This document shows, piece after piece, positions 28,311 through 44,544 of a stretch of 64,000 bases of DNA. The notes under the pieces were generated by a model. It was given only the letters and a program-made list of their open reading frames with translations, did no database searches and had not been told where the DNA came from. This DNA comes from a virus (taxonomy: Duplodnaviria; Heunggongvirae; Uroviricota; Caudoviricetes). Position 1 is the stretch's first letter; every line of letters begins with the position of its first letter. The DNA lies in the IMG/VR virus record IMGVR_UViG_3300006145_000006, positions 2,480 to 66,479 of that record; one strand, written 5' to 3'. The translations under genes and the position numbers were made by a program.

Positions 28311-28975
28311 ACATTGACCCCCTCAAGAGCGCCTTGTTGTGTCAGGCCGTCTACGACATCCTGGAACAGAAGCGGGCACTCGCTATAAAATTGTTTGAGT
28401 AGCATAGCCGCTACCTCTCGCATCTGCGGATGCGCGGCATTGGCACACCGCAGCTTAAAGAAGTGCCTCCACTCCCTGATGTTGGCCGTCATGACCACCT
28501 CGGTCTTGAGGCTGTTGGGCAAGACTGCCCGGGCCTCCTGTGGAGTGCATCCGCTTCCAAGCATATCGAAGTAGTGACGCTCGGCGTCTGAACACGCTTG
28601 AAGCCAGTGTGTGTAAGCCGGAGACTCGTCGGCCTTATCTAAGTAGCACGGCTCTATGACCGTGATTTCGTTTCCAAAGCCGTCCTTGGAGTAGTTGCAG
28701 TACCGGGTGCTCTCCTGGCAGTAGCTCGCCAGGCGGTGGCGGACAATTTCGTGGCTGACACCGCGGTCACATACGAACTTTGCCGTGACGTTGAAGTGTT
28801 CCAGAACCGCCTCGTGGCCTCGCTTAATGATATTGGAAAGAAGCCTCTCGGCACTGCCGTCCGCTATCTTGTCCTCGGACTTGTAGCAGACACGTCCACA
28901 CTGCTCCAGGTGGCGCATCACGTCTTGTCCGTTGAACGGCGAGATGATCGTTGTGCTCGGCTTGATGACCTTCAT
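28307..28975 (-). CDS. thyX: flavin-dependent thymidylate synthase ThyX (start MKVIKP, SD AAGGAGAAG)
   Basis: ThyX signature RHRLASYCQESTRY (RHRxxSxxxxSxRY). Confidence 0.8.
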   Translation of the reverse strand: MKVIKPSTTIISPFNGQDVMRHLEQCGRVCYKSEDKIADGSAERLLSNIIKRGHEAVLEHFNVTAKFVCDRGVSHEIVRHRLASYCQESTRYCNYSKDGFGNEITVIEPCYLDKADESPAYTHWLQACSDAERHYFDMLGSGCTPQEARAVLPNSLKTEVVMTANIREWRHFFKLRCANAAHPQMREVAAMLLKQFYSECPLLFQDVVDGLTQQGALEGVNV

Positions 28976-28985
28976 ATACTTCTCC

Positions 28986-29531
28986 TTAGTAACAAAATAC
29001 ATGACCGCCAATGCGATCGTATGTGGTTCGATTCCGAAACCCATTAGGACTGAAGAACATAACATCAACGTCAAGGATAGGCTCGCTCTCGTTCAGGACC
29101 ATCTCAATCGCTTCGTACTCCTCTTTGGTCGGTTTGGCAACAGACAGGTTCTTCGCCGTGGTGAACTGGTTTTTCTGAAAAATGACATCGCGTACCGTGT
29201 TCGGGAACTCGTCAGACAAGATGCGGTTAAAAATGACTTCTACGACTGCCCGCTTACCGGTCATCGATTGATTGCCTGCCTCAAGCAAGGTAATGCCGGC
29301 GATGAGATCGATCTCCTCCTGCGTGATGGTACTTGCGATATCCTTATAGTAAGGAGAGCACCCATCATCCCGCTCTATGTAAACTGTTTCAATTTTGGGC
29401 GTTGGAATCAGCCTTTCTATGTAAATAGGTTCAGGCTTCTGTACTTTAAAAGCTATACAAACAGCCATCGATACAGCCAATGCGAAGACGGCAAAACGCC
29501 ACAAAAATATTTTTATTTCGAGCCCTCCCAT
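28986..29531 (-). CDS. membrane-anchored SleB/CwlJ-like cell wall hydrolase (Hydrolase_2 family)
   Basis: N-terminal TM. Motif LIAGITLLEAGNQSMTGKRAVVEVIFNRI...FPNTVRDVIFQKNQFT. Confidence 0.65.
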   Translation of the reverse strand: MGGLEIKIFLWRFAVFALAVSMAVCIAFKVQKPEPIYIERLIPTPKIETVYIERDDGCSPYYKDIASTITQEEIDLIAGITLLEAGNQSMTGKRAVVEVIFNRILSDEFPNTVRDVIFQKNQFTTAKNLSVAKPTKEEYEAIEMVLNESEPILDVDVMFFSPNGFRNRTTYDRIGGHVFCY

Positions 29532-29877: not shown

Positions 29878-30132
29878 ATGCCGCGTTGGCCAAAATCAAC
29901 AGGGGACTTTGATACAAAGATCGATTTGATTGACGCAAAGATTCAACGTCATCAAGAGCAAATCGACAAACTGGAAGAGGAGCGTTCCGAACTCATCTCC
30001 CAGAAACGTGACTTCGAGATGCAAGAGCTCTATGACTTCATGCAAAGCTCTGGCATGACGGCAAGGGGAATCCTTGACGTGGTGGAACCCGCCGTTGCCG
30101 CCATGAGCCAAGAGCAGCCAGAAGAAGTTTGA
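29878..30132 (+). CDS. small coiled-coil protein on the opposite strand to the surrounding operon
   Basis: SD GGAGGG; 84 aa; followed by its own terminator. Confidence 0.5.
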   Translation: MPRWPKSTGDFDTKIDLIDAKIQRHQEQIDKLEEERSELISQKRDFEMQELYDFMQSSGMTARGILDVVEPAVAAMSQEQPEEV

Positions 30133-30137
30133 TGGAT

Positions 30138-30166
30138 AACCCGCCTATTTTGGCGGGTTATTTTTA
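30138..30166. terminator. bidirectional rho-independent terminator (AACCCGCC-tatttt-GGCGGGTT + ATTTTTATT)
   Basis: 8-bp GC stem plus T-run, between convergent genes. Confidence 0.65.
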
Positions 30167-30194
30167 TTGGGTAATGCCTCATCAAATCAGTATT

Positions 30195-30569
30195 TTATGG
30201 TGTTAGTAGTGGGGCAACAGTTTTTGGACTTACAAAGGCCAGAAGGACATCGAGAGGTAGATACCCTCTAAACTTATCTCTCAAATCGTCAGCCGTCCTC
30301 TTGTCCCGCAGATACAGTCCTTTAACACCGTCGCACTCACTCTCAACAAAGAAGTCGGAGTAATATTCAAGCATGGCGTATGTCCTATCCCTATCCAAAA
30401 GCAGAATGCAGTGTTTACCCCCCTCTGCGTTTTGGTTCAACACATCCGCAACTCTTTCCCCATACCACTGCAAATCAATATAGGAGATAAACCGACGTGC
30501 CGGATTTGATTGTAATACCTCAATGAAAGCGTTTGCCGCCAAATCTTCTATCTCTAAATATCTCGCCAC
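30195..30569 (-). CDS. hypothetical protein
   Basis: 124-aa ORF in the operon; no recognisable domain. Confidence 0.45.
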   Translation of the reverse strand: MARYLEIEDLAANAFIEVLQSNPARRFISYIDLQWYGERVADVLNQNAEGGKHCILLLDRDRTYAMLEYYSDFFVESECDGVKGLYLRDKRTADDLRDKFRGYLPLDVLLAFVSPKTVAPLLTP

Positions 30570-30602
30570 ACTGCTACACCTCCTCCTTATAAAATGTTGC
30601 TT

Positions 30603-31265
30603 TTACTGGGTTCCTTCCTTCTCAATCTCGTCTAACCTCTCACGGCACACATCGAAATAGCCAGGGTCAATTTCCCAGCCTATGTAGTGGCGCCCTGTCT
30701 TGGCGGCAGCGACAGCCGTTGTACCGCTCCCCATGAAGGGGTCACAAATCACCTGCCCAGGCTCGCTGAATTGCTCCAGCAGCATTTGAACCAGTTCGGT
30801 CGGTTTCTGTGTGGGGTGATACCGCTTGTCTTTGCTGTCTCGAATGAACCCTTGTTGTCTGAATACAATCCGTTTTACAGGCTTTTTGAACGTGGTATAA
30901 ATCAGCTCTCCGTCTGCAAACGGGTTTTGAAAGGCCGTATCGCCTTTCTTGTCCCAGAATATCCAACAGTTAGACGGAGGGAGATTATTGGAGAAGTAGT
31001 TCCCACCAAAAACGATTAAGTTCTTGGCGACTCGGAACATCTCCTTGAACAATTCGGGAGGCGGGGCTTTGGAGTCCCAGCCGCCATCATAACGACGATT
31101 TTTGGCAGCACCAAATCCATTAGTCCCCTTGTCTGCCCTTTTTCCATACGGGGGGTCAGTCAAAATTAAGTCGATGGATTTGTCAGGTAACGTCTTCAGC
31201 CCAGCCATGGCATCTCCATTGTAAATCACGTCAAGCGCCATGTTGTTTTTGTTCTCTGTTGTCAT
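30603..31265 (-). CDS. DNA amino-methyltransferase (beta-class N6A/N4C, DPPY motif), orphan
   Basis: TDPPYG motif IV near the N-terminus and C-terminal FMGSGTT (motif I). Confidence 0.8.
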   Translation of the reverse strand: MTTENKNNMALDVIYNGDAMAGLKTLPDKSIDLILTDPPYGKRADKGTNGFGAAKNRRYDGGWDSKAPPPELFKEMFRVAKNLIVFGGNYFSNNLPPSNCWIFWDKKGDTAFQNPFADGELIYTTFKKPVKRIVFRQQGFIRDSKDKRYHPTQKPTELVQMLLEQFSEPGQVICDPFMGSGTTAVAAAKTGRHYIGWEIDPGYFDVCRERLDEIEKEGTQ

Positions 31266-31304
31266 GTTTTCTCCTCATAGAATGCCGCTTTACTGGGTTT
31301 AGAT

Positions 31305-31535
31305 TTATGAATACCACTTATATGTATCTTGGAACACTTGCACCCCTTCAGAGTATCCTAAAGATTCCAGCAAATCAGCCATGGCATTGTCCATTGCGAT
31401 GTGAACAAATTCGATATCATTTGAGTTATCGTCTGAACCTTTTCTCTGAATATAACGCATTTGTTCAGCGAATTCTGCTGGGGTTTTAATGGTATTTTCC
31501 ATTACCGGGTCTCCCGAAGGATGAGGGGAGGGCAT
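31305..31535 (-). CDS. hypothetical small protein
   Basis: ORF in the operon; likely internal start MENTIK. Confidence 0.4.
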   Translation of the reverse strand: MPSPHPSGDPVMENTIKTPAEFAEQMRYIQRKGSDDNSNDIEFVHIAMDNAMADLLESLGYSEGVQVFQDTYKWYS

Positions 31536-32449
31536 TAGCCCTCTCCCCCGCCAATGGTCACAAACGGATTAACAGAGTTGCCCATGACCTGGGGCCACTC
31601 CCCGTTCCATTTATCAACCATCTGGAGCTTGGTATATTCGGGGCTATTGGCGAGCTGTTCCTGGATCATCTGGATAGAATAGGCTTCCGCCTCGGCCTCA
31701 ATTCGAACAACATCAGCCTCTGCGTTCGCCCGAACAATGGCAGTCTCAGCATTAATTTCCGCAACCTGCTTATCCTTCTCGGCCTGAACCTTGGCAGTCT
31801 GCGCCTCGATATTAGCAAGCTCAAGTTCCTGCTGGGCAGTGACCTTCTTCTGAATGGCAGCAGCAGTCTCGGTGTCCACCGAAATGTCTGTGAAGTTTAC
31901 AGTGTCAATGATAATGCCATAATGGTCAAACTTCTCACGTAGATAAATATCCAGCTCAGCGTTGATGGCGGTACGCTTATCGCCAAAGATGTCAGTTACA
32001 GGGTAATTGGCGGAAACTTCTTGAGTCCAAGCGATGACCTTGGGCTTGATAAAGGTGTCCTTAATCTCTTCTCCGGACTTGCCCTTAAAGGTCGTAAAGG
32101 TTGTAGCAACTCGGTCAGGATCAAAGCGGTAGGAGAACTCCAGATTTACTCGAACGGTTTTACCATCAGAGGTAGGAATGCTGAAGCTCTCATCGTTCTT
32201 TGAATCGCCCTTGTCATCGGAGGTCAGGTAAGACTGCTCAATACCGACAGAGTATGTAGTAACCTTTTTCGTAGGAGATACCACGTGCCAGCCCTGCGAG
32301 AGGACCTCGCCATCAACGCCACCGTTCATGTTGTATACCACGCCAACATAACCGGCAGGGATCCGCTTTGTACACATCAGCAGCAGAATCAGACCAAGCA
32401 CAATACAAACCGCAAAAACAATGCCGCCGATAAAACCCTTCTTTTTCAT
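31535..32449 (-). CDS. SPFH/band-7 (prohibitin/HflKC-like) membrane protein
   Basis: N-terminal TM + SPFH core (PAGYVGVV...RVNLEFSYRFD...) + Ala/Glu-rich coiled-coil tail. Confidence 0.8.
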   Translation of the reverse strand: MKKKGFIGGIVFAVCIVLGLILLLMCTKRIPAGYVGVVYNMNGGVDGEVLSQGWHVVSPTKKVTTYSVGIEQSYLTSDDKGDSKNDESFSIPTSDGKTVRVNLEFSYRFDPDRVATTFTTFKGKSGEEIKDTFIKPKVIAWTQEVSANYPVTDIFGDKRTAINAELDIYLREKFDHYGIIIDTVNFTDISVDTETAAAIQKKVTAQQELELANIEAQTAKVQAEKDKQVAEINAETAIVRANAEADVVRIEAEAEAYSIQMIQEQLANSPEYTKLQMVDKWNGEWPQVMGNSVNPFVTIGGGEG

Positions 32450-32609
32450 TACACATTCTCCTTTTTATCATCAGAATTATTGGTTGAATCTTCTTCGTTC
32501 ATAGCGTCCTTCGCATCCGTGAGCAACCGAGCAACAAACTTACCCAGCGGGACAAAAACAAAGGAACAGCATAACCATAGGAGTGCGGCTCCTAAGATTA
32601 CCAAGATAA
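32450..32609 (-). CDS. 53-aa membrane peptide immediately upstream of the SPFH gene (not in ORF track)
   Basis: MPAFFILVILGAALLWLCCSFVFVPLGKF... Its stop abuts the SPFH start codon. Confidence 0.45.
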
Positions 32610-32639
32610 AAAACGCCGGCATTTACATTCTCCTTATAT

Positions 32640-32999
32640 TTAGATTTCATCATAAAACGGGTCGTTCGTCTCATCGTAATAGTCTGGTGCCTCCGTGGCG
32701 TTATACCAACAGAACTCAACAAGTCTGACTTTGTTCATATCTACGTCCGGGATAATCTTGGCCCATGTTGCGTGATATTTTTCCTGTTCTTTTTCTGACA
32801 GTGCTCTTGTCTTTCCATATTCGCCGTCCGCATCCCGATCACATTCAAGGACAAAATCAATAAACCCTTTTGTGGTAGGAGCAATTTGAAACTTACCGGG
32901 TTCGCCCCAGCTAAACAAATCCTGATACTTCTCTTCAAATGTTTCAAGGTCACCGTCCATCGGATACCGTAGGACTTTTTCTCTAATGTATGTACTCAT
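32640..32999 (-). CDS. hypothetical protein (start MSTYIRE, SD GGAGG)
   Basis: Start chosen from the SD; no domain. Confidence 0.45.
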   Translation of the reverse strand: MSTYIREKVLRYPMDGDLETFEEKYQDLFSWGEPGKFQIAPTTKGFIDFVLECDRDADGEYGKTRALSEKEQEKYHATWAKIIPDVDMNKVRLVEFCWYNATEAPDYYDETNDPFYDEI

Positions 33000-33132
33000 G
33001 TTGCCTCCAAAATGTTTTCTGGTTTGATTTCGTCCGAAGTCCGATTTTTCGGTCACTTTTTATGACGAAACTACTTGATAATTCTGTGAATCTAGCAGGA
33101 TTTTACCTGATAAAATGCTGGTTTTATTGGGT

Positions 33133-33420
33133 TCACAACGTGCCGTATGTCCGCTCAATCGCATTCTTGATGTCTTCAAGAACGTCAACTGTGTCGCGAA
33201 ACTCCCCATTTTCGTCTCTAACAGATATTCCATATTTCTCTATCTCCGACAAGACACTATCGTGTTTTGCCTGGCCCAATTTATCTATGAGGCCCTTTAC
33301 GCCGCCACCTCTCATGTCTTCGGTCTTCTGGTTACAGACCTCATCACATGGCTTGTCTACTCTGGTACACCATCCGCACGGCGCATAATACCGACATAGT
33401 TCTTTAGCTACCATACACAC
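33133..33420 (-). CDS. hypothetical small Cys-containing protein
   Basis: ORF in a co-oriented early gene string. Confidence 0.4.
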   Translation of the reverse strand: MCMVAKELCRYYAPCGWCTRVDKPCDEVCNQKTEDMRGGGVKGLIDKLGQAKHDSVLSEIEKYGISVRDENGEFRDTVDVLEDIKNAIERTYGTL

Positions 33421-33429
33421 CTCATAAAA

Positions 33430-33822
33430 CTATTCTTTTACTGACTCTGCGCATTTCTTGAAAATCTCAAGTATCTGCTCACTGGTCAGATTTTCGGTCA
33501 TATAGCTGTCTCTGAACGGGTACTTGTACCACCGAATTTCGAAGCCGGTAGGCTTGTAAAGGAAGTTTGGAGCTTCACACTCGACCTCATTATCTTCATC
33601 GCCCCACCAATACGGCCTAATGGAAAACACATCATTCTCATACCCACCGCGGTCATTTTCACTGGCGCAGTCTGTGTATCCGTAGCAGTCTGACTTGGTG
33701 GCCTCTAATAGGCCTTGCCACTCCGCCGAGTCAACTAGCTCTCTGTCCGGGAACTCATACTCGCCACGACTATATCCAAAGAGCAGATTACCAAGCTCTA
33801 TATCAGGATGTTTCAGCATCAA
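33430..33822 (-). CDS. hypothetical protein
   Basis: 130-aa ORF in the early string. Confidence 0.4.
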   Translation of the reverse strand: MMLKHPDIELGNLLFGYSRGEYEFPDRELVDSAEWQGLLEATKSDCYGYTDCASENDRGGYENDVFSIRPYWWGDEDNEVECEAPNFLYKPTGFEIRWYKYPFRDSYMTENLTSEQILEIFKKCAESVKE

Positions 33823-34015
33823 CCCATGTCACCTCGTCTTCTGCTGGAGCAGCGTGTGCGCCATCCTTATACCCTTCTTCATACCCGCGTTCATGTTCTA
33901 CAGTTTTGAGGTCTTCAAGAAGTTCTTCGAAATGCCGCCTGGCATCCGGCCCCATATACTCCTCAATCAAATTGGCAAACGCTCGGTTTCCTCTATCACC
34001 TATCAGCACTTCCAT
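33803..34015 (-). CDS. hypothetical small protein
   Basis: 70 aa. Confidence 0.35.
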   Translation of the reverse strand: MEVLIGDRGNRAFANLIEEYMGPDARRHFEELLEDLKTVEHERGYEEGYKDGAHAAPAEDEVTWVDAETS

Positions 34016-34077
34016 CTTTTCTTTTCCGTACTTAGGCTCTATGTATAGCGTCTCGGCTATTGTGGGTCACCTCTCTT

Positions 34078-34377
34078 TTAGTAGAATGGGTGGATCTCGA
34101 CTTCTACTCGCTCGAAATCTCTCGCCGTATTCTTAACAACAGCGATGCATTCTCCATTGCACTTTGCTTCTACGACCTGCCGAAGAAAACGGCATGCACC
34201 GCCCGCAGTTAATGCTCCAGCAAGGGGCGCGACAATCTCCAAGAGGTCAGCACAGTCATCCAGCGATAGGGGATAGTTCTGCACTACCTTTTCAATTCTT
34301 CTGGCCGCCTCGGGAGCAAATTCAAATTCCGTCATTTTGCACCTCATTGCCGCCGACTTCTGTATCATTGCTGTCAC
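34078..34377 (-). CDS. hypothetical small protein
   Basis: 99 aa. Confidence 0.4.
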   Translation of the reverse strand: MTAMIQKSAAMRCKMTEFEFAPEAARRIEKVVQNYPLSLDDCADLLEIVAPLAGALTAGGACRFLRQVVEAKCNGECIAVVKNTARDFERVEVEIHPFY

Positions 34378-34660
34378 TGTGTCGCTTCATCTTGGAATCA
34401 AACAGAGATGAAAACAAATCACCGAAGTCCATTTTTTCATACTCCTCAATTTCTTTGATGGCCTTATCATATTCGGCCATTCTGCCTTTAAAATAGTCTG
34501 TTTTCAATACAGCTTTCCGTGATTCTTGAAGCTCTTCATTTGTGAGAATCCCTTTGTTCAGCAAAACATTCTGAAGCGCATCAACAAATGCCATCGCTGT
34601 GACAACGCCTCGCTGAAACTCAATAAATTCTTTTGAAGCCTGTATACTGCTGTCGAGCAT
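34322..34660 (-). CDS. hypothetical small protein
   Basis: 112 aa. Confidence 0.4.
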   Translation of the reverse strand: MLDSSIQASKEFIEFQRGVVTAMAFVDALQNVLLNKGILTNEELQESRKAVLKTDYFKGRMAEYDKAIKEIEEYEKMDFGDLFSSLFDSKMKRHSDSNDTEVGGNEVQNDGI

Positions 34661-34687
34661 CGTGTCACTCCTTACAAAATTAGGATT

Positions 34688-34870
34688 CTACTGGCCCGGC
34701 TGTTTAAGCACTATCGCTTCGCCGTTTAAATACTTCCGTAGCCACATACCGCAGGAGACACACAACTCCTTCTGGTCAAGGTCTCCCCGGCCACCGACCG
34801 ATACATGAACAGCAGATCCGGGCGGGTTAATTGGCTCACGACATCTATCACAGATTTTGATTGTTGCCAT
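34688..34870 (-). CDS. small zinc-ribbon protein
   Basis: CDRC...CVSCG. Confidence 0.4.
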   Translation of the reverse strand: MATIKICDRCREPINPPGSAVHVSVGGRGDLDQKELCVSCGMWLRKYLNGEAIVLKQPGQ

Positions 34871-35269
34871 ACCTGTTCCCCTTCCTCATCCATCATGGTC
34901 CATGATAGCTTCCATCACAATCTCAAGCTGCCGATTGGTTTCTTGGATAATTGCGGCGTACACTTTAGCCAAGTCAACTGGGGTAATCGCCTGCCCCATC
35001 CATTCTTGGATCATGCCTTCCATATCTTCAATACTGATGTTAATGACTGCTCCATCTCCTTCCGTCTACTGGTTCAAATCGGTGTTGGTCAAGCCAATAT
35101 GAGGGGCACCTTCCGAATAGCGCATACCTGAACCAGTCACCTTGGCGGTCGGCGTGCCCACATCCGGCCCCTAAGCTGCGGCCATACAAGCAGGTGGAGC
35201 AATTTTCAGGGACTTGCTTCTTCTCAAAAACCTCCATAAACACCTCATAGAATTAATATTTCATCGGGT

Positions 35270-36028
35270 TCAGTAATCAGGACAGGGATAGCTGTTATCG
35301 AAAAACCGCAACTCCTCTTCGTCAATGATGACCGGAGTCTTGTTGTAGTAGCACTGAACAAGCAGTTGCTCCACGTCGTTGAGGTATCCAAGCTGCGCCT
35401 TGCAGTCAATCGGGCTCCCATCAAACATTAGGCTGGTGATATGATATGGGACGTTGTCTCCATAACCGCCATACAGCCGGAACGAAATTTCTTTGTCCCC
35501 GGTGGGGTTTGCATCCTTGTCAAAGGCAACCTTGGCCCAGTGTTCATCTGTCGGATCGTAGTATGCAAGGAATTCGTCACCGCTGTGGTGGTCGTCGTAG
35601 TCCATCTCTGAAATGGCATACTTCCGATATGCCTCAAAAATCTCAGACAGCCTGATAGACTCTCGCTTGGTCACGAACAGGCTCTCCAGCATCTCTGTGG
35701 TCTTATTTGCCACATCGTCTCCTGCGTAAGAATTGATGATTTCACGCATCCTCTTCACCATAATGGCGTTATAGCTGGAAAAATCCAAGACACCGACAGC
35801 ATCACTAATCTGTTTCTCAACCTTCTCCTGGATTTCTCGCTTGATTTTGTAGCTGTCTATGGCATCTTTGATTGCAGAAAGCAGAGACTTTTCCACGGTC
35901 TCTTCGATAGCCTTCTGAACCACACCGTCTTCATCGAGTTGCCGGAGCTTTTCCCCAACGATAGCGTCTACGTCAATGTTCAATCTGTTACCTCCATTAA
36001 AACAGTCCCCACTCGGCGAACCTCTCAA
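35270..36028 (-). CDS. hypothetical protein
   Basis: 252-aa ORF downstream of the MetK-like gene. Confidence 0.45.
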   Translation of the reverse strand: MRGSPSGDCFNGGNRLNIDVDAIVGEKLRQLDEDGVVQKAIEETVEKSLLSAIKDAIDSYKIKREIQEKVEKQISDAVGVLDFSSYNAIMVKRMREIINSYAGDDVANKTTEMLESLFVTKRESIRLSEIFEAYRKYAISEMDYDDHHSGDEFLAYYDPTDEHWAKVAFDKDANPTGDKEISFRLYGGYGDNVPYHITSLMFDGSPIDCKAQLGYLNDVEQLLVQCYYNKTPVIIDEEELRFFDNSYPCPDY

Positions 36029-36812
36029 AGCCGCCTACGGACTTGATGTAGTTTTGGGCGATCTCCACGATTTCGGAGTAGGGACGACCATCCACCGTGT
36101 CGTCGCCGATAGCGCAGCACAACTCCACCGGAGAGCCAGTCTCCTGTGCCTTCAGGAAGGCGTAGATATTGACCGACACATCGGCCTTGGAGAGATCCTT
36201 GCCATGGAGACCACCGCCGGTGACGGAGTCCGCCATGTCCGAGCCGAGTTTTCGGTTCGTAGCACCGGTGTCCACGTCCGTTCCTCCTGTCCAGTCGCCC
36301 AGCGGGTTGGCCGTCGCCCCAGGATACTCCGCCATGAGAGCGCCGCTGTCTGCGTTGCTCTGACAAATGATGAGGTGGTCGCCGTCAAGGATGTACTTGC
36401 CGTCCGCGGGGTACTTGGCATAGATGTTCCTGGCGATGTCGGACAGCCTATTCTGTTCCTCAGTCAGCGGCATCCCCTTGAAGATGCCGTTGTCACCGCA
36501 CTTGACTTTACCGAGCTGGTTGTCCGCAAGGTGCTTGTCCTGCGGGACAAGGACAATGTCCGGGATCGTGTGGTCTCCTGTAATTCTGCGAATTGCATCG
36601 TAAATATCGGAGCATTGCAAATCGGCAGAAGTCTCTGCAATCACATGACAGACACCGTGTCCGATCAAGACCTCAACGGCGATTTTCGGATCGTCCTCGC
36701 GCTGGTAGGCCAGGTCAACAATAGCGCCGGCAATCCTGTCTGCCACCTTATCAGGATGGCAGGGGTTTACTTTCTCAATCATACGATCAATCCTCCTGTC
36801 GGCAGCGCCCAC
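35997..36812 (-). CDS. compact S-adenosylmethionine synthetase (MetK)-like protein
   Basis: MetK motifs: CHPDKVADRIAGAIVD (GHPDKIADQISDAVLD), GDNGIFKG (GDQGLMFGYA), GGGLHGKDLSKADVS (GGGAFSGKDPSKVDRS). Only 271 aa. Overlaps the MTase by 34 nt. Confidence 0.65.
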   Translation of the reverse strand: MGAADRRIDRMIEKVNPCHPDKVADRIAGAIVDLAYQREDDPKIAVEVLIGHGVCHVIAETSADLQCSDIYDAIRRITGDHTIPDIVLVPQDKHLADNQLGKVKCGDNGIFKGMPLTEEQNRLSDIARNIYAKYPADGKYILDGDHLIICQSNADSGALMAEYPGATANPLGDWTGGTDVDTGATNRKLGSDMADSVTGGGLHGKDLSKADVSVNIYAFLKAQETGSPVELCCAIGDDTVDGRPYSEIVEIAQNYIKSVGGFERFAEWGLF

Positions 36813-38206
36813 CCGTCCTCCCGGACCTGGAACGCATCGCCAAGCTGAATTGTATTAGGGTAGTTCTCCATCGTGGTTTTGATGGCGTACTTGTCGATCT
36901 CCGTGGCGTAGTACTTGGTGACATTGGCTCCCAGCTTGTCCAGAGCGATATGGCCACAGCTCATTCCATCGTACATAGACAGCACCTCGATGGGGTCTGC
37001 GTCAATACCGGGCACATAGGACAGAATGTGGGAGATGACGTCACACGTCCACCCATTCCCCAGCATTTTGTAGGCTTGTGTGGGACTCACCGGGAAGATA
37101 TAGGTCTCCGGCACGGTCTGGAGCCGCATACACTCCAATACGGTCAGTTTGCGGATGATGTAGTAGCCATCGGCCAGCTTGATGGGATACTGCTTGTCCT
37201 TAATTGTGATAAGGCCGTCTTTCACCTCGTAAACAGGATGGGTCTTACCATCCCAGGACTCGCAAACCAACCGACTTTGGTGCCCACCGATGACAGCATT
37301 AGATTTCTCGTCACTGCGGATCTCCCAGCACTGGTTCCGCTCATGACCGCCTCTGCGAGCTGCACCACACGGCACGGCATAAAGCCCTGTCTTGGCCCCA
37401 ACGCCACCGCCCTGACCGCAGATGGTCACGCTCTTACCGTCAGGAGAGTACACACGATACTGCTGGCTGTCGAAATTCTTATTTGCTGAGTTATTCTCGA
37501 TAGTTCCAATACGGATCGGCTCAGCCACACAGGTCTTGCGGTCTACGGTGTTGCCCACCATGTTGCGGATACCGTCCTTATAATATGTAGCCCGGAGGCA
37601 TTGAGCTTTGCCGTCTGCGGTGACATTGACTGGCTCGGCCACCATGTTTCTCTGGTGCCGTTTTACGCAATCCTCCGGTGTAGCAAATCCGCATCTGGTA
37701 GATAGTGCATACGCTTTCCCGTCCTCAGTCGTTCCTACAGGCTCTGCCGCCATAAGTCTTGAATAAGACCGTTGCTTCTTGGGGTTAAACACTCCTGCGG
37801 TCTTGTAGTAGTGGGCATCTAAGGTGTATGCTTTCTCGTTCCAGGTTGTGCCGCTCTCCAGCACATCCCGAAGTAGTATACCTCTATCCTCCGGTTGCTC
37901 TACGCTGGGGATATTTGTCCAGTAAAGACGCTGGCGGTTTTGTGCGGACACCTTCGCCGAATTGATAAGGATGGGTTCTACTCCAAGTTCCTTGGTGATC
38001 TGCTCCCTGATTGCGGGAGCCATACTTTTGTTGTTCTCGTACAGAAAATAATCTGGCTGATACTTCTCCTTGGCGATTCGATAGTTCTTGAACAACTCCC
38101 AGCCGATGCCGGATGGTTCAGTTTCACGATCTTTGGTCTGTGCTATCGACCAATGTGTGCAGGGGCTTCCACCCATTAACAGCTTGATTATATGTATTCC
38201 TCCCAC
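36779..38206 (-). CDS. DNA (cytosine-5)-methyltransferase with circularly permuted motif order (IV-X then I-III)
   Basis: N-terminus LLMGGSPCTHWS (PC motif IV), then ENN (VI), variable region, LECMRLQTVPETY...YKMLGNGWTCDVISHIL (IX/X). The extreme C-terminus is VLSMYDGMSCGHIALDKLG...YYATEIDKYA...NYPNT (motifs I-III). GTG start with no SD. Confidence 0.75.
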   Translation of the reverse strand: MGGIHIIKLLMGGSPCTHWSIAQTKDRETEPSGIGWELFKNYRIAKEKYQPDYFLYENNKSMAPAIREQITKELGVEPILINSAKVSAQNRQRLYWTNIPSVEQPEDRGILLRDVLESGTTWNEKAYTLDAHYYKTAGVFNPKKQRSYSRLMAAEPVGTTEDGKAYALSTRCGFATPEDCVKRHQRNMVAEPVNVTADGKAQCLRATYYKDGIRNMVGNTVDRKTCVAEPIRIGTIENNSANKNFDSQQYRVYSPDGKSVTICGQGGGVGAKTGLYAVPCGAARRGGHERNQCWEIRSDEKSNAVIGGHQSRLVCESWDGKTHPVYEVKDGLITIKDKQYPIKLADGYYIIRKLTVLECMRLQTVPETYIFPVSPTQAYKMLGNGWTCDVISHILSYVPGIDADPIEVLSMYDGMSCGHIALDKLGANVTKYYATEIDKYAIKTTMENYPNTIQLGDAFQVREDGWALPTGGLIV

Positions 38207-38288
38207 GTCTGGGAGGTGTCCGGACTTTAATGGCCAACCTCACTGTCAAATTTGTAAAGTCAATAAAATAAGAATTTTATGTTGAATT

Positions 38289-38510
38289 TTGGCGAAAAGC
38301 GTGTATACTAAATATTACCTCCATGGTTCTATCTTAGAGCTGGGAGGCGATCGTGTGTCTATTGTACCCGTACTAGCAGATTATGCGACACTTATCATGT
38401 TTGGTGGTGTTGTTATTCCGTGGGCTATAAAGAAAGTCGTCATATGGATTTCTCAGATTGTGGACGAAAGTCGCAAGAAGAAAAATCCAGGCGATGGCTC
38501 TCCTGAATAG
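38289..38510 (+). CDS. small membrane protein (opposite strand; weak signals)
   Basis: TTG start; one TM helix. Confidence 0.3.
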   Translation: MAKSVYTKYYLHGSILELGGDRVSIVPVLADYATLIMFGGVVIPWAIKKVVIWISQIVDESRKKKNPGDGSPE

Positions 38511-38624
38511 TACACGGGAGGAAAGGAGGCTGGTCCGGCTTATCGACGAACGGCGCCTTCACATGGAGGGAGAGCTTTCCAGCTCGGGTGGCCTGCCGAT
38601 AAAATGCGGCAGGCCACTTTTTAT

Positions 38625-38891
38625 TCACTTCCAGAATTCCCACCTTGTCAGTGCCTCAACTGCAAGGCGAGCATATTCTGCTACCTCTGGTGAGAAGATA
38701 TCCTCGTCGATTCCCTTTTTATAGTAGACAATGGCAGCTCGTATATCAGGTACGTTCTTGGCTCTCTCCCTGACCTCTGGATAAAAGTCGCACCGCGAAC
38801 AATTCCCACCGCATCGACACTCATCCACTTCCTTCGTCGCTAAGCAACGAAAAGTATTACCATAAACAGTCCACGACTTGCATCTATCCAT
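38625..38891 (-). CDS. hypothetical Cys-rich small protein
   Basis: CRCGGNCSRC. Confidence 0.4.
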   Translation of the reverse strand: MDRCKSWTVYGNTFRCLATKEVDECRCGGNCSRCDFYPEVRERAKNVPDIRAAIVYYKKGIDEDIFSPEVAEYARLAVEALTRWEFWK

Positions 38892-38909
38892 TCAAATATC
38901 CCCTCCTAT

Positions 38910-39596
38910 TTACCATGCCAATAATGCATTTCGAACTTTGTCCGGCAATCGATACTCAAGTTCATATTCCGCAATGGAACTACGGATATAATTTCTTTTT
39001 GCGGTTTCATGAGCAATTGCCGCTTCCTCAGCACTATCAAAAGTACCCAAATAATTGCGGTTAAACTCAACTACATATTTGTTTGAAGTTCTTGTTCTAT
39101 GGACACCGCACGGAAGATCAGCGTCAACGGACCTCTCCTTGCTCATAAAAATCATGTTAAATCGTTGGGGAATGAGGATACATTTTTCGGGAGAGTACAC
39201 TTTGTTCCCTTTCACAAGTATGTCTTTGTCAATATGGAGCCTGCCTTCGCATGGATACCAATTATCGTTATACCATCTTGCAAATGCTTGATAATTGAAC
39301 CACTCTTTACAGACCGTGCAGATGTGATAATATGTGCGGTATCTATCTCGTTCTCTTGGACTATAACAACGGTCAAGGATGCTATCCCAGGTGTCATAGG
39401 CGTCTGTGAGTTTTCCGTCCACTCGCGTCTTATAAGGGCCTTCTCCTAAATATCCAACACCACGCACCGTGATATCATATGGGTTTCTTACAGACCCCCG
39501 TTTAAAATTTTGATATGTGGTGCGAACAACCACGCCATGTTCATCGAGAAAACGAACATCTATATCTCTATTGCCACGAAAGCCTACAATCTTCAT
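38910..39596 (-). CDS. HNH homing endonuclease with AP2-type DNA-binding domain (start MKIVGFRG)
   Basis: HNH_3-like H-N-H region (RLHIDKD...NL) and AP2 (KYVVEFNRNYLGTFDSAEEAAIAHETAKRNYI). Confidence 0.65.
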   Translation of the reverse strand: MKIVGFRGNRDIDVRFLDEHGVVVRTTYQNFKRGSVRNPYDITVRGVGYLGEGPYKTRVDGKLTDAYDTWDSILDRCYSPRERDRYRTYYHICTVCKEWFNYQAFARWYNDNWYPCEGRLHIDKDILVKGNKVYSPEKCILIPQRFNMIFMSKERSVDADLPCGVHRTRTSNKYVVEFNRNYLGTFDSAEEAAIAHETAKRNYIRSSIAEYELEYRLPDKVRNALLAW

Positions 39597-39643
39597 CTCC
39601 GTTCCTTTACTATTCTTGTTCGTCTCTCCAATCGCATCTTTGC

Positions 39644-40042
39644 TCATCGAGTACTTTCGTCCACCTTTTTCAAGTCTCCGGTCCAGAACAACCACTTCGG
39701 CACGGTCGGATCCTCTGCCAAACACACAAGTCCAGAGTTTCCCTTTCGAGCCTTGTCATACTCTACGGTAAATGTGCGACCAGCATTGCTCTCACAGAAC
39801 TCTCGGTATTCTAGCCGTCTGTCCTGCCAGCCCGGGTGCCCCTTGATTCTCTCTATATCGAGCTGAACCTTATCTTCGGCCTGAAGCGTTGGCTGTGAGT
39901 CTTGAGCCTCCTTGAGCTTGATAACCGTTTGAACGTCCTCTTTGGACATTCCATTCTTGCGAAGGCGTGAGGATAAATCTCTGCGTTGCTGTCTGTTCAA
40001 TCTCGATCCTCCGATACCTGAAAGTTCTTCACATGGCTCCAA
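39644..40042 (-). CDS. hypothetical protein
   Basis: 132-aa ORF. Confidence 0.4.
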   Translation of the reverse strand: MEPCEELSGIGGSRLNRQQRRDLSSRLRKNGMSKEDVQTVIKLKEAQDSQPTLQAEDKVQLDIERIKGHPGWQDRRLEYREFCESNAGRTFTVEYDKARKGNSGLVCLAEDPTVPKWLFWTGDLKKVDESTR

Positions 40043-40224
40043 AAATGGTCAATCCAATCATAGCCGAGCATGACGATGCCGACCCATGCGCCGGCGGCAC
40101 ACAGGCCGCCCCAGATGGTTTCCGCAGGAGTCAGTGCAGTAGTATTGCAACCAAAGTAGATAGTCTCGACAACATTGACCACCAGGGCCACCAGCAGGAT
40201 AATTAAAGCCCTATACTTCTTCAT
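39997..40224 (-). CDS. small membrane protein (2 TM)
   Basis: SD GGAGGT; 75 aa. Confidence 0.5.
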   Translation of the reverse strand: MKKYRALIILLVALVVNVVETIYFGCNTTALTPAETIWGGLCAAGAWVGIVMLGYDWIDHFWSHVKNFQVSEDRD

Positions 40225-40270
40225 GTTGTACCTCCATCAGTCTATAAAACATCTCTTTCATCAGGTTTAA

Positions 40271-40708
40271 TCAATAGTCCTTTGGTGCCTCGAAAGTTAC
40301 ATGTACGGGCATCTTATAAAACTGAGTAGACTGCTGTGCCATACACTGCAAAAATGCAGCGGCGGTATCCTTCTTAAACTTTTTCGTGTCGAGCTGCCGA
40401 ATAATTTCCGTTTCAAACTCAGTCGAGTGCTCCTCAATGTACTTGGTGATACAATCACGGACAGTATCCTTTACGGTTTTGTTTGCAAGCCACTGCAAAT
40501 ACGGAGTCTCATAACTATATCCATGGCCTGGTTTTCCTTCACTATTTACCTTCTGGTTAATGACATTATCTACGCACTCTTTAACGATTGTGGACGGATT
40601 ACCAAGAGCCTGAACAATTCCAGCTCTGACAATTTCCTCAACAGATTCTTTGATTAAATCCTGATCGATGTTCAAATTCAAACCAACTAAATTCTTACCT
40701 TCGTTCAT
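40271..40708 (-). CDS. hypothetical protein
   Basis: 145-aa ORF. Confidence 0.45.
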   Translation of the reverse strand: MNEGKNLVGLNLNIDQDLIKESVEEIVRAGIVQALGNPSTIVKECVDNVINQKVNSEGKPGHGYSYETPYLQWLANKTVKDTVRDCITKYIEEHSTEFETEIIRQLDTKKFKKDTAAAFLQCMAQQSTQFYKMPVHVTFEAPKDY

Positions 40709-40741
40709 ATATTACACTCCAATCTCAATAAAAGAATAATT

Positions 40742-41218
40742 TTACTGGGTAACCTCCGCCTGATCCGGACTACGGAACACGACTATCATACTGGGGAATG
40801 GTGCCGCATCCCCCGCCTCGCCGTTGGTTTCAAACCGCAGACGGCCACGAAGAAATCGAATTTCAACGCCAGGCTTCTTGTATATGTAGTCATGAAAGCT
40901 GGCTCGGTCAGTTCGGGCCGGGATAAGGAGCACCACGGTGGTTCCGTTCTTGCGAGACTCATCGTAGCATTTCTTGGTCCACACGCCAGTTTCCTTGTTG
41001 CCATACGGAGGATTGCAAAACACGGTCTCTCCACCCCAGTTGTGGGAAAGCCCATCAGTCTGGGCCGTATAGTACCTGTCGCATTTATGGTTTGTATCGC
41101 TTGCGGCAGCGTCAAGCGTGAAATGGAATTCATTGTCTAACTGGTTATATAGGCTCTGCGGAGTCTCCCAGTCGTTCTTGTCGCTGCTGAACATTACTCT
41201 TGCCGTCAAATTATTCAT
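40742..41218 (-). CDS. phage Dam-like DNA N6-adenine methyltransferase (NPPY)
   Basis: WETPQSLYNQLDNEFHFTLDAAAS...FCNPPYG matches the phage N-6-adenine MTase family. Confidence 0.75.
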   Translation of the reverse strand: MNNLTARVMFSSDKNDWETPQSLYNQLDNEFHFTLDAAASDTNHKCDRYYTAQTDGLSHNWGGETVFCNPPYGNKETGVWTKKCYDESRKNGTTVVLLIPARTDRASFHDYIYKKPGVEIRFLRGRLRFETNGEAGDAAPFPSMIVVFRSPDQAEVTQ

Positions 41219-41235
41219 TTGTCCTTATTACCATC

Positions 41236-41550
41236 CTATGTGAATTCATGTCCTGTGAACTCATATCCCTCTGCGTCTTTCCAGTAGTCATCCCGATATC
41301 GGCCATCCTCATACAAGAAATGGGATATGGCCGAGCCTGCACTGCAATCATCGAGATCTCCGGTTTCTGGCAACTCTTTATTAAAGTCCAAGACTCTGCT
41401 CTTGAAGCCCGCCCAGTCGTAACACGTACCATACTCGTCAACAATCTTGCAGTCAGGGATGTCCTCATAGGCCTGTTTCATCAGAGCAACGCTATTAATT
41501 CGTTTGTGACCTTGAAAGAGCGGTAGCCACCCGCCGGATGTCTTTGCCAC
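41236..41550 (-). CDS. hypothetical protein
   Basis: 104-aa ORF. Confidence 0.4.
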   Translation of the reverse strand: MAKTSGGWLPLFQGHKRINSVALMKQAYEDIPDCKIVDEYGTCYDWAGFKSRVLDFNKELPETGDLDDCSAGSAISHFLYEDGRYRDDYWKDAEGYEFTGHEFT

Positions 41551-41658
41551 ATGGACTTCATAACCGAATTCTGGGGGAATCCGTCAGACGCACTTCCTCG
41601 TCCGAGAACCACTTCATCTTTCCGGCCCTATCTTGAAACAGAAAGTAGAAATTCGTTC

Positions 41659-42306
41659 CTATGTCACACCGCCTCCAAGCGCTTTCTTATATCCATTATT
41701 GACCCACCACAAGATTCTTCGCCAACGCTTCTCATTAAAAAACTGTTGTTTGCGATACCATTCAGACACATCATACTGCCTTTTTGAGCTATTACATTGT
41801 ACACATGCTGGAACACAATTCTCTATACCATCGCTTCCAAACGCATCGACGTGATCTCTGTGTAGCCTTTGTCCAAACATCTTAATATGCTCTATTTCTG
41901 ATATGCCGCAATACGCACATGACCTATCAAATTCATCTAATACCATTTGATATTGTTTTTCAGAAATGTGATGATCATGATGATTCTTATAGTACTCTCT
42001 CAGCCTGTCTGGGTTATCTCTTCTCCACTGAGTCATATATCCAGACCCGTTACGCTTCCTGTAATATGGACGCCTACGCTCCACAATACGATCGCGATTT
42101 ATATGCTGATATCTCTTATCCATTGCTTTCTTTTCTGCTGGGTGACTATGCACCCATTCTATTGTTTTCCCTCTCAAACATCGCTTGCATTGTGAAGTAA
42201 ATCCGAGTTCTGGTTTTTGTTTATTCTTGTAGTAAAAATTTTCATATGTGTTTGGATATGCGTTTCCGCAATTAGAACACCTTTTTAGCTCTGCGCCCGA
42301 ATCCAT
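41659..42306 (-). CDS. HNH endonuclease (Zn-finger rich)
   Basis: HRDHVDAFGSDGIENCVPACVQCNSSK HNH motif plus several CxxC pairs. Confidence 0.7.
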   Translation of the reverse strand: MDSGAELKRCSNCGNAYPNTYENFYYKNKQKPELGFTSQCKRCLRGKTIEWVHSHPAEKKAMDKRYQHINRDRIVERRRPYYRKRNGSGYMTQWRRDNPDRLREYYKNHHDHHISEKQYQMVLDEFDRSCAYCGISEIEHIKMFGQRLHRDHVDAFGSDGIENCVPACVQCNSSKRQYDVSEWYRKQQFFNEKRWRRILWWVNNGYKKALGGGVT

Positions 42307-42334
42307 GATTAGAAATCCTCATTTGCCGCTCGTT

Positions 42335-42823
42335 TTATAGGGTGCACATCCTTCTCTTGAAGTCCATATACTCCTGATCATCTACCTGGGCCAAGTCGAG
42401 TCTCTCCATCACATTACCCTTTTCGCTGATTCGGATATAGAGATTGCCGCACTTACTGAGATAACAGGTTTGGGTGGTTGCCGGAACATTGTAATCGCAA
42501 TCAGACGGCACCCAGATATGCTCCGATGTTCCATTGTCGTATGTAATATCAACCGAGGTAATGTCCGCATATATAGTGATCCTATCGAATGGGGACGTGG
42601 GATCATCGTAAAACGGTGTCTCCTGTGGGACATTTGCGGACGAAAACAGCTCAAGGAAAAACTCATCGCACTCTGTATAGTCCGTAATGCAGTTACACCC
42701 AAGGCTGGATACCGACTCGCGAATCCCAACGCAGTCAAAATCGCCAATGTCCTTGCGGTCGAACTCCCACACTTCGCAGTTTTCCATTCCAAGCGCGATC
42801 TTCGTTACTTCAGCCATCTTCAC
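42335..42823 (-). CDS. hypothetical protein
   Basis: 162-aa ORF. Confidence 0.45.
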   Translation of the reverse strand: MKMAEVTKIALGMENCEVWEFDRKDIGDFDCVGIRESVSSLGCNCITDYTECDEFFLELFSSANVPQETPFYDDPTSPFDRITIYADITSVDITYDNGTSEHIWVPSDCDYNVPATTQTCYLSKCGNLYIRISEKGNVMERLDLAQVDDQEYMDFKRRMCTL

Positions 42824-43106
42824 TTACCTCCTGAAATTTCTGAGGAGCATCCCACTCCCAATAATCACCCGTGGCCAATTCCTTTGCAGCGAACCTGTTG
42901 CAACGAAAACAGGGTCTTGATTGGTTAAAGTCATCGTAGAATTTACAGTGCTGACAGTCGCCGCTGACCTGGCGGAACAGCTCCGCAATCATGGCAACCG
43001 CTTCTTTAATGTCGTCTGGCAGCGTGATTGGCACTTCCCAGATATTTGCCTCTGCCCATTCAGCCCACTGGAGTAAGTCGGCCTTGAGCGTTTCGATGTC
43101 CTTCAA
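42810..43106 (-). CDS. hypothetical small protein
   Basis: 98 aa. Confidence 0.4.
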   Translation of the reverse strand: MKDIETLKADLLQWAEWAEANIWEVPITLPDDIKEAVAMIAELFRQVSGDCQHCKFYDDFNQSRPCFRCNRFAAKELATGDYWEWDAPQKFQEVSEDG

Positions 43107-43420
43107 CCTCGCATTACCTCCGACTTTCTCTGTTGCAATTTATCTGCCTGCGCCCAATACCGGTTAGGCAGATGCAAGACGGTTATGAGCTTGTCTTCCC
43201 GGAACAGATATAGCATTCTGTTATAAGCCCTCATATTGGTTGGTCGATAATTCAACAGGAATACGCCGTTCATGTATTGACAGAGCTTCCCGGTGGCTTC
43301 CTTATGGGAGACCCCATAGTTCAGTGCCTTCTGCGCTTGTTTCTCAACGCTCTTTTTGTTTAGACCGAGTCGTTGCCTGATGCGCTTTGTTCCATGCTTT
43401 GTAACATATGCTTCACCCAC
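43103..43420 (-). CDS. hypothetical small basic protein
   Basis: 105 aa. Confidence 0.4.
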   Translation of the reverse strand: MGEAYVTKHGTKRIRQRLGLNKKSVEKQAQKALNYGVSHKEATGKLCQYMNGVFLLNYRPTNMRAYNRMLYLFREDKLITVLHLPNRYWAQADKLQQRKSEVMRG

Positions 43421-43642
43421 AGCCGCTCACCTCCATTCACCGTAAAATCGTAGTTTTATTGGGTTTGGTCTTTATAATTAAGACCATGCCTCCACTCGAA
43501 ATCTGTGCACCTATTCCAATAATTCTTTGTGCTCATTGTTCTCCTGCAAATGTCTCCATCATATGTGCATGAGTGCCCATCCACATGAACATGGCCAAAG
43601 AACTGGCAGTGCTCACATTTAATGTTACTGTCCTTGCTCTTA

Positions 43643-44110
43643 TCAATAGCTCTCATTGAAACCTCTCCATATCATCCAATGGTCTTGTACTGGCTGACAC
43701 TTTTGGAATAGGGAGCCAAGTGTCAATCCGTTGTGTTTGGCAAGGTCTGTCGTTACCGCAGATACGTTCTTATCTGTGGACGCACCAAGCTCTTCTGCCA
43801 TATAATCTAAGAGACTACAATACGACCTATCTGGACGCACTGGCTTCCCTGGATTGAAGTCCCACGCCAACAGCTTGTGCCCGTTGATGGTATACTCGGC
43901 ATTTGGGTCACCTAAATTAGATCCTTCCGAATGTATCCACCAGCCCCAGGTGCCGACCCAATCGGCGTCATCGATGTTACAGATAACATCAAAGTCCTTG
44001 TCGCTAAGCTCCCACACCTCATACCGCAGAGAGGAATATGTTCGTTTTGCTGTAGAGCAGAGTCGCCTGAGTGCGTTTTTTAAACCTTCTCCGCCAAGAA
44101 TCTCTTTCAT
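43643..44110 (-). CDS. hypothetical protein
   Basis: 155 aa. Confidence 0.4.
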   Translation of the reverse strand: MKEILGGEGLKNALRRLCSTAKRTYSSLRYEVWELSDKDFDVICNIDDADWVGTWGWWIHSEGSNLGDPNAEYTINGHKLLAWDFNPGKPVRPDRSYCSLLDYMAEELGASTDKNVSAVTTDLAKHNGLTLGSLFQKCQPVQDHWMIWRGFNESY

Positions 44111-44151
44111 GTCCCGCCTCCAAAGTCAATAAAACTAGGGTTTTATCTGGT

Positions 44152-44544
44152 CTAACAGTTCTCCCAGCAGTAGTCCACAAACTGGTCCCAGTTCATGGCG
44201 AGCTGCTCATAGACATCGATTTTCACCATTTTGTCTCGCTCCTCATGGTACGGCCACGGGGCGAGCTGAATCTCCCACTCACACTTGCTCCAGAAGCGGT
44301 ACATCATCTCACGGTTGATCTCAGCAGCAAAGTCCCGCTTCTCTGTGAATCGCTTCTTGGTCTTTTTAAGGAAGTCCTTCATACCGGACAGCACATTGTA
44401 AGGCTCGATTTTGTTGGAAGCGTAGTTGCGGTAGTACACATACCAGCACAGTTCCTTTTGTGATTGGTCACACCACCATTTCGTAGCGGTACAGATACCA
44501 GTAACCGCTCTTATTCTTTTGAACGTCGCTCGCATAGATGACAT
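44152..44544 (-). CDS. hypothetical protein
   Basis: 130 aa. Confidence 0.4.
   Translation of the reverse strand: MSSMRATFKRIRAVTGICTATKWWCDQSQKELCWYVYYRNYASNKIEPYNVLSGMKDFLKKTKKRFTEKRDFAAEINREMMYRFWSKCEWEIQLAPWPYHEERDKMVKIDVYEQLAMNWDQFVDYCWENC

Follow-up and report, generated by a model that had tools for sequence, protein, structure and literature searches.

A compact MetK homologue predicted to be translationally coupled to a C5 DNA methyltransferase in a temperate tailed phage

Why should a tailed phage encode a synthetase of its own for S-adenosylmethionine (SAM), and can a protein trimmed far below the length of the bacterial enzyme, MetK, still serve as one? These questions are raised by a gene in a stretch of 64,000 nucleotides from a member of the Caudoviricetes (IMG/VR record IMGVR_UViG_3300006145_000006, positions 2,480 to 66,479), which is referred to below as the window. 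On the minus strand of the window a short MetK-like gene directly follows the gene for a C5 cytosine DNA methyltransferase, a consumer of SAM, and two further DNA methyltransferases are encoded elsewhere in the same stretch. We consider it probable that the MetK-like protein is an active, minimized SAM synthetase, co-translated with the DNA methyltransferase, which sustains the methyl donor while the three enzymes methylate the replicating phage genomes. The gene, its truncation and the idea of methyl-donor supply have all been published before. What we add here is the corrected start of the gene with its ATGA coupling, an account of the subdomains and the catalytic set that survive the trimming, and a quantification of the linkage to methyltransferases of different classes.

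The gene and its junction with the C5 methyltransferase gene

The longest open reading frame (ORF) at this locus, as delimited mechanically, spans 35997..36812 on the minus strand and would encode 271 amino acids (aa) from a GTG at 36812. An earlier note, made from the letters of this DNA alone, had described this frame, which is indeed present, and had derived from its GTG a 34-nt overlap with the C5 methyltransferase gene; both the length and the overlap have to be revised. The MetK-like gene is better read as 35997..36782 on the minus strand, with an ATG at 36782-36780, a TAA at 35997-35999 and a product of 261 aa that begins with MIEKVNP. A Shine-Dalgarno sequence, AGGAGG (36792..36797, minus strand), as read from the sequence, lies 9 nt 5' of this ATG, within the 3' end of the methyltransferase gene. 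In the 120 top-ranking clusters, out of more than 8000 that are homologous, almost all proteins are 260-261 aa long and have MIEK or MFEK at the N-terminus, the lengths and starts of the homologues in 25 catalogued phages agree with the 261-aa reading, and gene callers arrived independently at a 261-aa product on related metagenomic contigs. On account of these homologue lengths, the gene calls in relatives and the position of the AGGAGG, the GTG start was rejected, and with it the ten-codon N-terminal extension (36783..36812, minus strand) as coding sequence of the MetK-like protein.

From the ATG at 36782 it follows that the true overlap is 4 nt, not 34: the TGA of the methyltransferase gene (36781-36779) and the ATG of the MetK-like gene form a stop/start overlap of the form ATGA at 36779..36782 on the minus strand, and an identical 4-nt junction joins the two genes in the relatives L085 and L086. 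Judged by its sequence, this junction is a classic arrangement for translational coupling, by which SAM synthesis would be produced in step with SAM consumption by the C5 methyltransferase.

Comparison with one relative of 84% identity yielded a nonsynonymous divergence (dN) of 0.070 and a synonymous divergence (dS) of 0.77, a dN/dS of ~0.09, and the gene is thus under strong purifying selection. Since this ratio is accompanied by more than 8000 homologous clusters, the frame is not a chance ORF. A pseudogene, or a host metK remnant in decay, was likewise considered and rejected, in view of the dN/dS and of the uniform length of ~260 aa, which is deeply conserved.

In Bacillota the host metK gene is subject to feedback by a SAM riboswitch (S-box). 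Unlike its bacterial counterpart, the window gene is phage-borne and lacks such a riboswitch: an Rfam scan of the whole window recovered no riboswitch or other RNA control element near it, the sole match being a tRNA gene (51851-51922, minus strand). The phage gene would accordingly be expected to act independently of the riboswitch feedback that governs host metK. Between 34000 and 41500 the counts of predicted promoters and terminators did not exceed those of shuffled DNA, and therefore no operon boundaries are claimed.

Fold and active site of the trimmed protein

What kind of protein does this gene encode, and what has it lost? Its nearest enzyme of known function is bacterial MetK, as represented by the E. 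coli enzyme, PDB entries 1fug and 1rg9, the Thermus structure 5h9u and the C. jejuni structure 4le5. The Pfam model S-AdoMet_synt_N (PF00438) passes its cut-off with E 7e-11, a phmmer search against PDB sequences recovered SAM synthetases only, over two stretches comprising the N-domain and the P-loop region, and a profile derived from 30 members of the family matched 45 solved methionine adenosyltransferases down to E 9e-18, again over the N-domain and P-loop stretches. Alignment by hhalign to E. coli MetK gave a probability of 98.6% across MetK residues 8-343. The protein also matches the profile phrog_1569 end to end (E 2e-67, residues 11-271 of the 271-aa reading), and with its phage context and a length within the ~260-300 aa of that family it is a regular member of PHROG 1569, which carries the label 'unknown function' in PHROGs. 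An AlphaFold2 model computed on the family alignment has a mean predicted local distance difference test score (pLDDT) of 96.2 and a predicted template modelling score (pTM) of 0.93; the sole drop in pLDDT, to 87-89, falls on residues 81-100, the counterpart of the MetK gating loop. The model displays the hallmark of the MetK superfamily fold, namely three similar beta-alpha-beta-beta-alpha-beta domains that share one flat beta-sheet face.

The 261 aa of the protein fall 123 residues short of the 384 aa of E. coli MetK, a difference close to the ~120 residues estimated in the earlier note, and the identity of the protein to canonical MetK is 22-27%. Alignment and model indicate that all three MetK subdomains are kept and that the losses are confined to peripheral loops and helices and to the C-terminal tail. 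Relative to the E. coli enzyme, the aligned segments that are missing comprise an N-domain loop of ~12 aa, ~19 aa of the second central-domain helix and a C-domain hairpin of ~15 aa, the last of which is still present in some family members. Taken together, the profile matches and the predicted fold identify the window protein as a genuine compacted homologue of MetK, as had been proposed from its motifs.

Does the active site survive this trimming? Residue numbers below are those of the 261-aa protein, the E. coli numbering was checked on the fetched metK gene, and conservation was counted among representatives at 50% identity clustering, over those sequences that cover a given position. The three motifs picked out by the earlier note, CHPDK (8-12), CGDNG (95-99) and GGGLHGKD (189-196), correspond to GHPDK, GAGDQG and GGGAFSGKD of MetK. 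Within the first of these H9, D11 and K12 match H14, D16 and K17 of the E. coli enzyme (conserved in 79, 81 and 79 of 83 sequences, respectively), and the Gly of the motif is replaced by a variable residue; E37 and E50 further along the N-domain match E42 and E55. In the region of the gating loop Q81 (96/101) matches Q98 and D97 of CGDNG (103/105) matches D118 of GAGDQG, with G99 kept in 101 of 106 sequences. W164 takes the place of F230, the residue that stacks on adenine. Further equivalences are D171 with D238, R177 and K178 with R244 and K245, D182 with D249, K195 and D196 of GGGLHGKD with K265 and D266 of GGGAFSGKD, K199 with K269 and D201 with D271. Each of these active-site positions is 92-100% conserved, and in the triphosphate-binding cluster, made up of DTGATNRK (171-178) and GGGLHGKDLSKAD (189-201), each position is conserved at 92-98%.

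The established biochemistry of MetK assigns roles to these residues: H14 is the acid catalyst, D16 is a ligand of Mg2+, K165 contacts the triphosphate, Q98 and the gating loop bind methionine, and D238, R244, K245, K265, K269 and D271 constitute the triphosphate-binding cluster. Save for the counterpart of K165, which is ambiguous, the alignment thus retains the positions matching the residues for ATP and methionine, whose possible absence the earlier note had raised. We therefore favor the reading that the MetK-like protein is a methionine adenosyltransferase of the bacterial type, which would convert ATP and L-methionine to SAM, pyrophosphate and phosphate, with the three-domain fold and the active-site residues that line its flat beta-sheet face predicted to be retained.

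A separate observation concerns four other family members, P0135, P0142, P0175 and P0213, in which the His or Asp of the HPDK motif has been lost (TPNK, HIDK, HVDK and NINK). Judged by sequence, such proteins may represent variants of the short MetK that have lost catalysis or have been repurposed.

Several features of the protein weigh against its being a working SAM synthetase. Of the three Pfam subdomains by which the earlier note had thought to gauge what is retained, only the N-terminal one scores above its cut-off: the C-domain model PF02773 reaches just E 0.22, below threshold, and the Pfam search gave no match to the central-domain model PF02772. The NCBIfam equivalog for metK, TIGR01034, is failed widely, at 39.5 bits against a cut-off of 309.4, and by this cut-off and the set of three Pfam domains the protein falls outside canonical full-length MetK. 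Compared with that of MetK, the P-loop-like motif lacks one residue, and ~45 C-terminal residues, including the conserved YGHFGR, are absent. As for K165, a near-invariant lysine, K129 (108/112), opens the first strand of the hairpin in the central domain of the model, where K165 would lie by topology, but MAFFT and hhalign both pair it with K176, in the DDGK turn. The weak scores of the central and C-domain models are, in our reading, due to divergence and trimming rather than to domain loss.

The same divergence could be taken to mean that the chemistry has changed, with the protein making a SAM analogue from a different amino acid or nucleotide for a non-methyl modification of DNA, or acting only as a tripolyphosphatase or as a binder of SAM. 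The low identity, the missed equivalog cut-off and the shortened P-loop would all fit, as would the presence of CGDNG in place of GAGDQG near the methionine site, and in related phages genes for an amidoligase, a gamma-glutamyl cyclotransferase and a nucleoside 2-deoxyribosyltransferase near the MetK-like gene hint at hypermodification. However, the equivalents of the residues that contact methionine and adenine (E55, Q98, D118, F230 and D238 in E. coli) are all kept and conserved, the partners of the gene belong to three classes of ordinary DNA methyltransferase that depend on SAM, and no amidoligase or cyclotransferase gene adjoins it in the window. Hence, we regard a change of chemistry as improbable.

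The quaternary arrangement of MetK, in which active sites form between two subunits, bears on another alternative. If the short protein is active, it would presumably assemble as a dimer in the same manner; yet it could instead act mainly by pairing with host MetK at the conserved flat interface, as a heterodimer that inhibits or deregulates SAM synthesis by the host, rather than by catalysis of its own. The short form does keep the beta-sheet core that builds the interface, and phage proteins that target MetK are known, such as the SAM lyase of T3. Nevertheless, near-complete conservation of the residues that bind metal, triphosphate and substrates, together with purifying selection, is the signature of a working enzyme rather than of a binder; the hosts of the family have MetK sequences that differ widely, and the SAM consumers that co-occur with the gene would starve if host MetK were inhibited. 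Such a regulatory mimic appears to us very improbable.

Linkage to DNA methyltransferases across the family

How widespread is the short form, and in what company does it occur? Clustering at 90% identity places this very large yet tight family in more than 8000 clusters; in a library clustered at 50% identity, 222 clusters reach E<=1e-30, and their number rises to 1251 when E<=1e-3 is allowed. Relatives are encoded on at least 575 IMG/VR contigs and in at least 426 species-representative genomes, the latter being overwhelmingly gut Bacillota, with Oscillospiraceae, Lachnospiraceae, Enterococcus, Erysipelotrichaceae and Peptostreptococcaceae among the carriers. The window protein is 65-92% identical to proteins of 260-261 aa from phages, prophages and metagenomes. 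Close homologues also lie on contigs of 3.6-24 kb binned to Alistipes, Muribaculaceae, Succinivibrio, Bacteroidales, Treponema, Bacteroidaceae and Methanobrevibacter (loci L090, L095, L104, L108, L118, L139 and L160); most likely these are contigs of Bacillota phages mis-binned into metagenome-assembled genomes and do not point to true hosts. Longer relatives of 346-415 aa (P0222, P0224, P0227, P0231 and P0247) bear an insertion of 60-100 aa at the boundary between the N-domain and the central domain, and P0238 (407 aa) has one of ~90 aa in the central hairpin instead; such insertions in the longer relatives account for the length of the PHROG 1569 profile, 346 positions.

The most telling aspect of these loci is their neighborhood. 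Linkage was assessed with four methyltransferase queries, so that the counts, some of them from truncated loci, are lower bounds. A DNA methyltransferase gene of the same orientation, less than 700 nt away, is present in 66/80 viral loci, in 59/80 genomic loci and in all three of the loci closest to that of the window. In these three the enzyme is a C5 methyltransferase encoded upstream, as in the window, whereas in annotated phages (Ca. Heliusvirales NatCom genomes, Terrisporobacter TPDSL_ph1 and Gardnerella vB_Gva_AB1) the order is HNH, terS, MetK-like and then a DNA methyltransferase. Where an IMG/VR locus has a downstream ORF on the same strand, it is in 54 of 70 cases a ParB_N + N6_N4 methyltransferase, which usually overlaps the stop of the MetK-like gene by 12-15 nt. 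The linkage to DNA methylation therefore persists while the class and position of the methyltransferase vary, and this is the strongest clue to function.

In the window itself the presence of three DNA methyltransferases, as counted in the earlier note, is borne out by Pfam. Apart from the C5 enzyme they are a Dam-type N6-adenine methyltransferase (40742-41218, minus strand; PF05869, E 3e-28) and an N6/N4 methyltransferase (30603-31265, minus strand; PF01555, E 2e-26; phrog_67, E 5e-51), both SAM consumers. We propose that the MetK-like enzyme would raise or sustain SAM during replication of the phage DNA, which would allow the three methyltransferases to methylate new genomes fully, and that full methylation may in turn protect those genomes from restriction.

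The C5 methyltransferase (36779..38206, minus strand, 475 aa; PF00145, E 5e-24) is unusual in its own right. Among proteins of solved structure its best relatives are the catalytic domains of Dnmt3A, 3B and 3C, to which it aligns out of order: residues 8-106 match Dnmt3A 85-188 (motifs IV-VIII), residues 337-396 match 228-286 (motifs IX-X) and residues 396-460 match 7-72 (motifs I-III). From these alignments we identify it as a Dnmt3-like enzyme in circular permutation; it can also be matched contiguously to DRM2, the 'domains rearranged' enzyme of plants, and its central insert of ~230 aa matches phrog_17284, of unknown function. The same gene, conserved at a length of 465-475 aa, is likewise found upstream of the MetK-like gene in L085 and L086, and it is thus not an assembly artefact. 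Its novelty may exceed that of the MetK-like gene.

The pair of genes coincides with a GC-rich island (36000-37800, 54-59% against 42-49% in the flanks), which suggests that the two were acquired, or move, as one cassette. On the 5' side of the methyltransferase gene, ~420 nt (38207-38624) contain no sizeable ORF on the minus strand and include a hairpin with a strong 13-bp stem (38586-38619), listed as terminator-like on the plus strand; this region could be a cassette boundary or have a regulatory function. A bolder version of our proposal would see in the short protein something close to the minimal catalytic core of MetK, working as a dedicated, feedback-free SAM generator that partners physically with the coupled methyltransferase for local hand-over of SAM, the two genes being a portable self-methylation cassette that is swapped as a unit. 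The island and the interchangeable class of methyltransferase point toward such portability, but in its entirety we hold this version to be quite unlikely.

The family has been encountered in earlier studies, and metK appears among the auxiliary metabolic genes of many virome surveys. Supply of SAM for phage methylation, which the earlier note also put forward, fits the synteny described above but is not a new idea: in 2014 a SAM synthetase, Orf29 of the Streptococcus pyogenes prophage Φ1207.3, was proposed to supply the methyl donor to a phage methylase (PMC4260502). Orf29 resembles the window gene in being a phage SAM synthetase in a neighborhood of an HNH endonuclease, a ParB-methylase and a C5 methylase, and differs from it in its length of 353 aa with strong matches to all three Pfam MetK domains (PMC4260502), as against 261 aa and the N-domain model only. 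For the Ca. Heliusvirales a study of 2024 reported that 58.9% of genomes encode a SAM synthetase (K00789) and 67% a C5 methyltransferase (PMC11283538). The homologues in NatCom_38182, NatCom_991 and other genomes of this group are 70-76% identical to the window protein and share with it PHROG 1569 and the methyltransferase linkage. In the Heliusvirales HNH, terS, MetK-like and ParB-N6/N4 methyltransferase genes stand just before the packaging genes, whereas in the window a permuted C5 methyltransferase gene precedes the MetK-like gene within a replication and nucleotide module. In two Heliusvirales-type loci, L002 (PP197246.1) and L003 (PV036450.1), genes for an amidoligase, a gamma-glutamyl cyclotransferase and a nucleoside 2-deoxyribosyltransferase are found a few kb from the MetK-like/methyltransferase pair, and their sequences hint at further chemistry of DNA or nucleotide modification in that lineage.

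A third precedent leads to a different view of what the gene is for. Renard et al. (2021) described in the S. agalactiae prophage 12/111phiA a MetK with a '135-amino-acid truncation' relative to the E. coli enzyme, and noted truncated MetK in Javan-like prophages of S. constellatus, S. equi and others (PMC8223999). The window protein is 65-73% identical to hypothetical proteins of Javan105, Javan191, Javan422 and Javan117, and through these, rather than through the 12/111phiA sequence, we consider that the two very probably belong to the same family; the host lineage and the phage differ, and the gene follows an endonuclease gene there and a C5 methyltransferase gene in the window. Deletion of metK from 12/111phiA abolished flocculation and long chains, which a plasmid-borne copy restored in part, with the complementation, according to the authors, confounded by secondary mutations (PMC8223999). 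These results raise the possibility of lysogenic conversion, in which the enzyme is active but has been selected, as a 'moron', to raise SAM in the lysogen and to alter host physiology, be it autoinducer-2 (AI-2), polyamines, aggregation or biofilm. The deletion and complementation phenotypes, the integrase of the window, which marks a temperate phage, and the wide occurrence of the family in prophages of gut Bacillota all speak in its favor. On the other hand, the gene is coupled to and embedded in modules for lytic replication, methylation and packaging rather than in a lysogeny or moron locus, a role in host physiology leaves the methyltransferase adjacency in ~80% of loci unexplained, and the rescue was both partial and confounded. 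We thus judge selection for lysogenic conversion to be unlikely.

Restoration of SAM when the host or a defense system lowers it, or the overriding of SAM-dependent immune signaling, would be a further way in which an active enzyme could serve the phage. Several defense systems use SAM as a cofactor or substrate, and the general logic was put forward in the earlier note; however, PHROGs carries no anti-defense annotation for the family (unknown function), none was encountered in the literature searched, and the syntenic genes are methyltransferases and packaging genes. We give such counter-defense little credence.

Supply of SAM for phage DNA methylation also has to reckon with observations of this wider kind. 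About 20% of the loci have no adjacent methyltransferase, the phenotypes reported for 12/111phiA concern the physiology of the lysogenic host and not DNA methylation, the study having dealt with host phenotypes rather than with enzymology (PMC8223999), and the literature searched contained no enzymology or structure for the short phage MetK family. All the same, each of the four alternatives fits the data on conservation and synteny less well than does the supply of SAM.

Genomic setting and biological meaning

The gene content of the window, which includes an integrase gene at 23422-24588 (minus strand), is that of a temperate phage or prophage. A megablast search with positions 30000-50000 gave no nucleotide-level match among INPHARED phages. 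The MetK-like gene sits within a module for replication and nucleotide metabolism. On one side of it, the same strand carries a cluster for nucleotide supply (25122-29074), comprising the anaerobic ribonucleotide reductase NrdD (25122-27299), a deoxynucleoside monophosphate (dNMP) kinase (27738-28310) and ThyX (28307-29074); no NrdG-like radical-SAM activase was recognized among the ORFs scanned in the window. Beyond the methyltransferase gene lie, again on the minus strand, an HNH/AP2 endonuclease (38910-39725), a PolIII-alpha-like polymerase (44468-47836) and a primase-helicase (47631-49526). Immediately 3' of the MetK-like gene is a gene of unknown function (35270..35980, minus strand; phrog_2600, E 5e-29), which probably starts at a TTG ~17 nt past the stop codon of the MetK-like gene, with a GGAGG 7 nt ahead of that TTG. 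Relatives do not keep this gene beside the MetK-like one, L085 having other genes downstream.

What, then, would the finding mean? As the gene, its truncation and the supply idea are already in the literature, its remaining value lies in biochemistry rather than in discovery. Should the short form be active, it would show how small the universal SAM synthetase can become without loss of function, and it would be of use in enzyme engineering and in biocatalysis with SAM analogues. Activity would also explain how the methyl donor for self-protective methylation is supplied in abundant gut prophages, including the Ca. Heliusvirales, the Javan-like streptococcal prophages and their relatives. With the family present in most human guts, SAM synthesis driven by phages could affect the methylation, polyamine and quorum-signal metabolism of their hosts.

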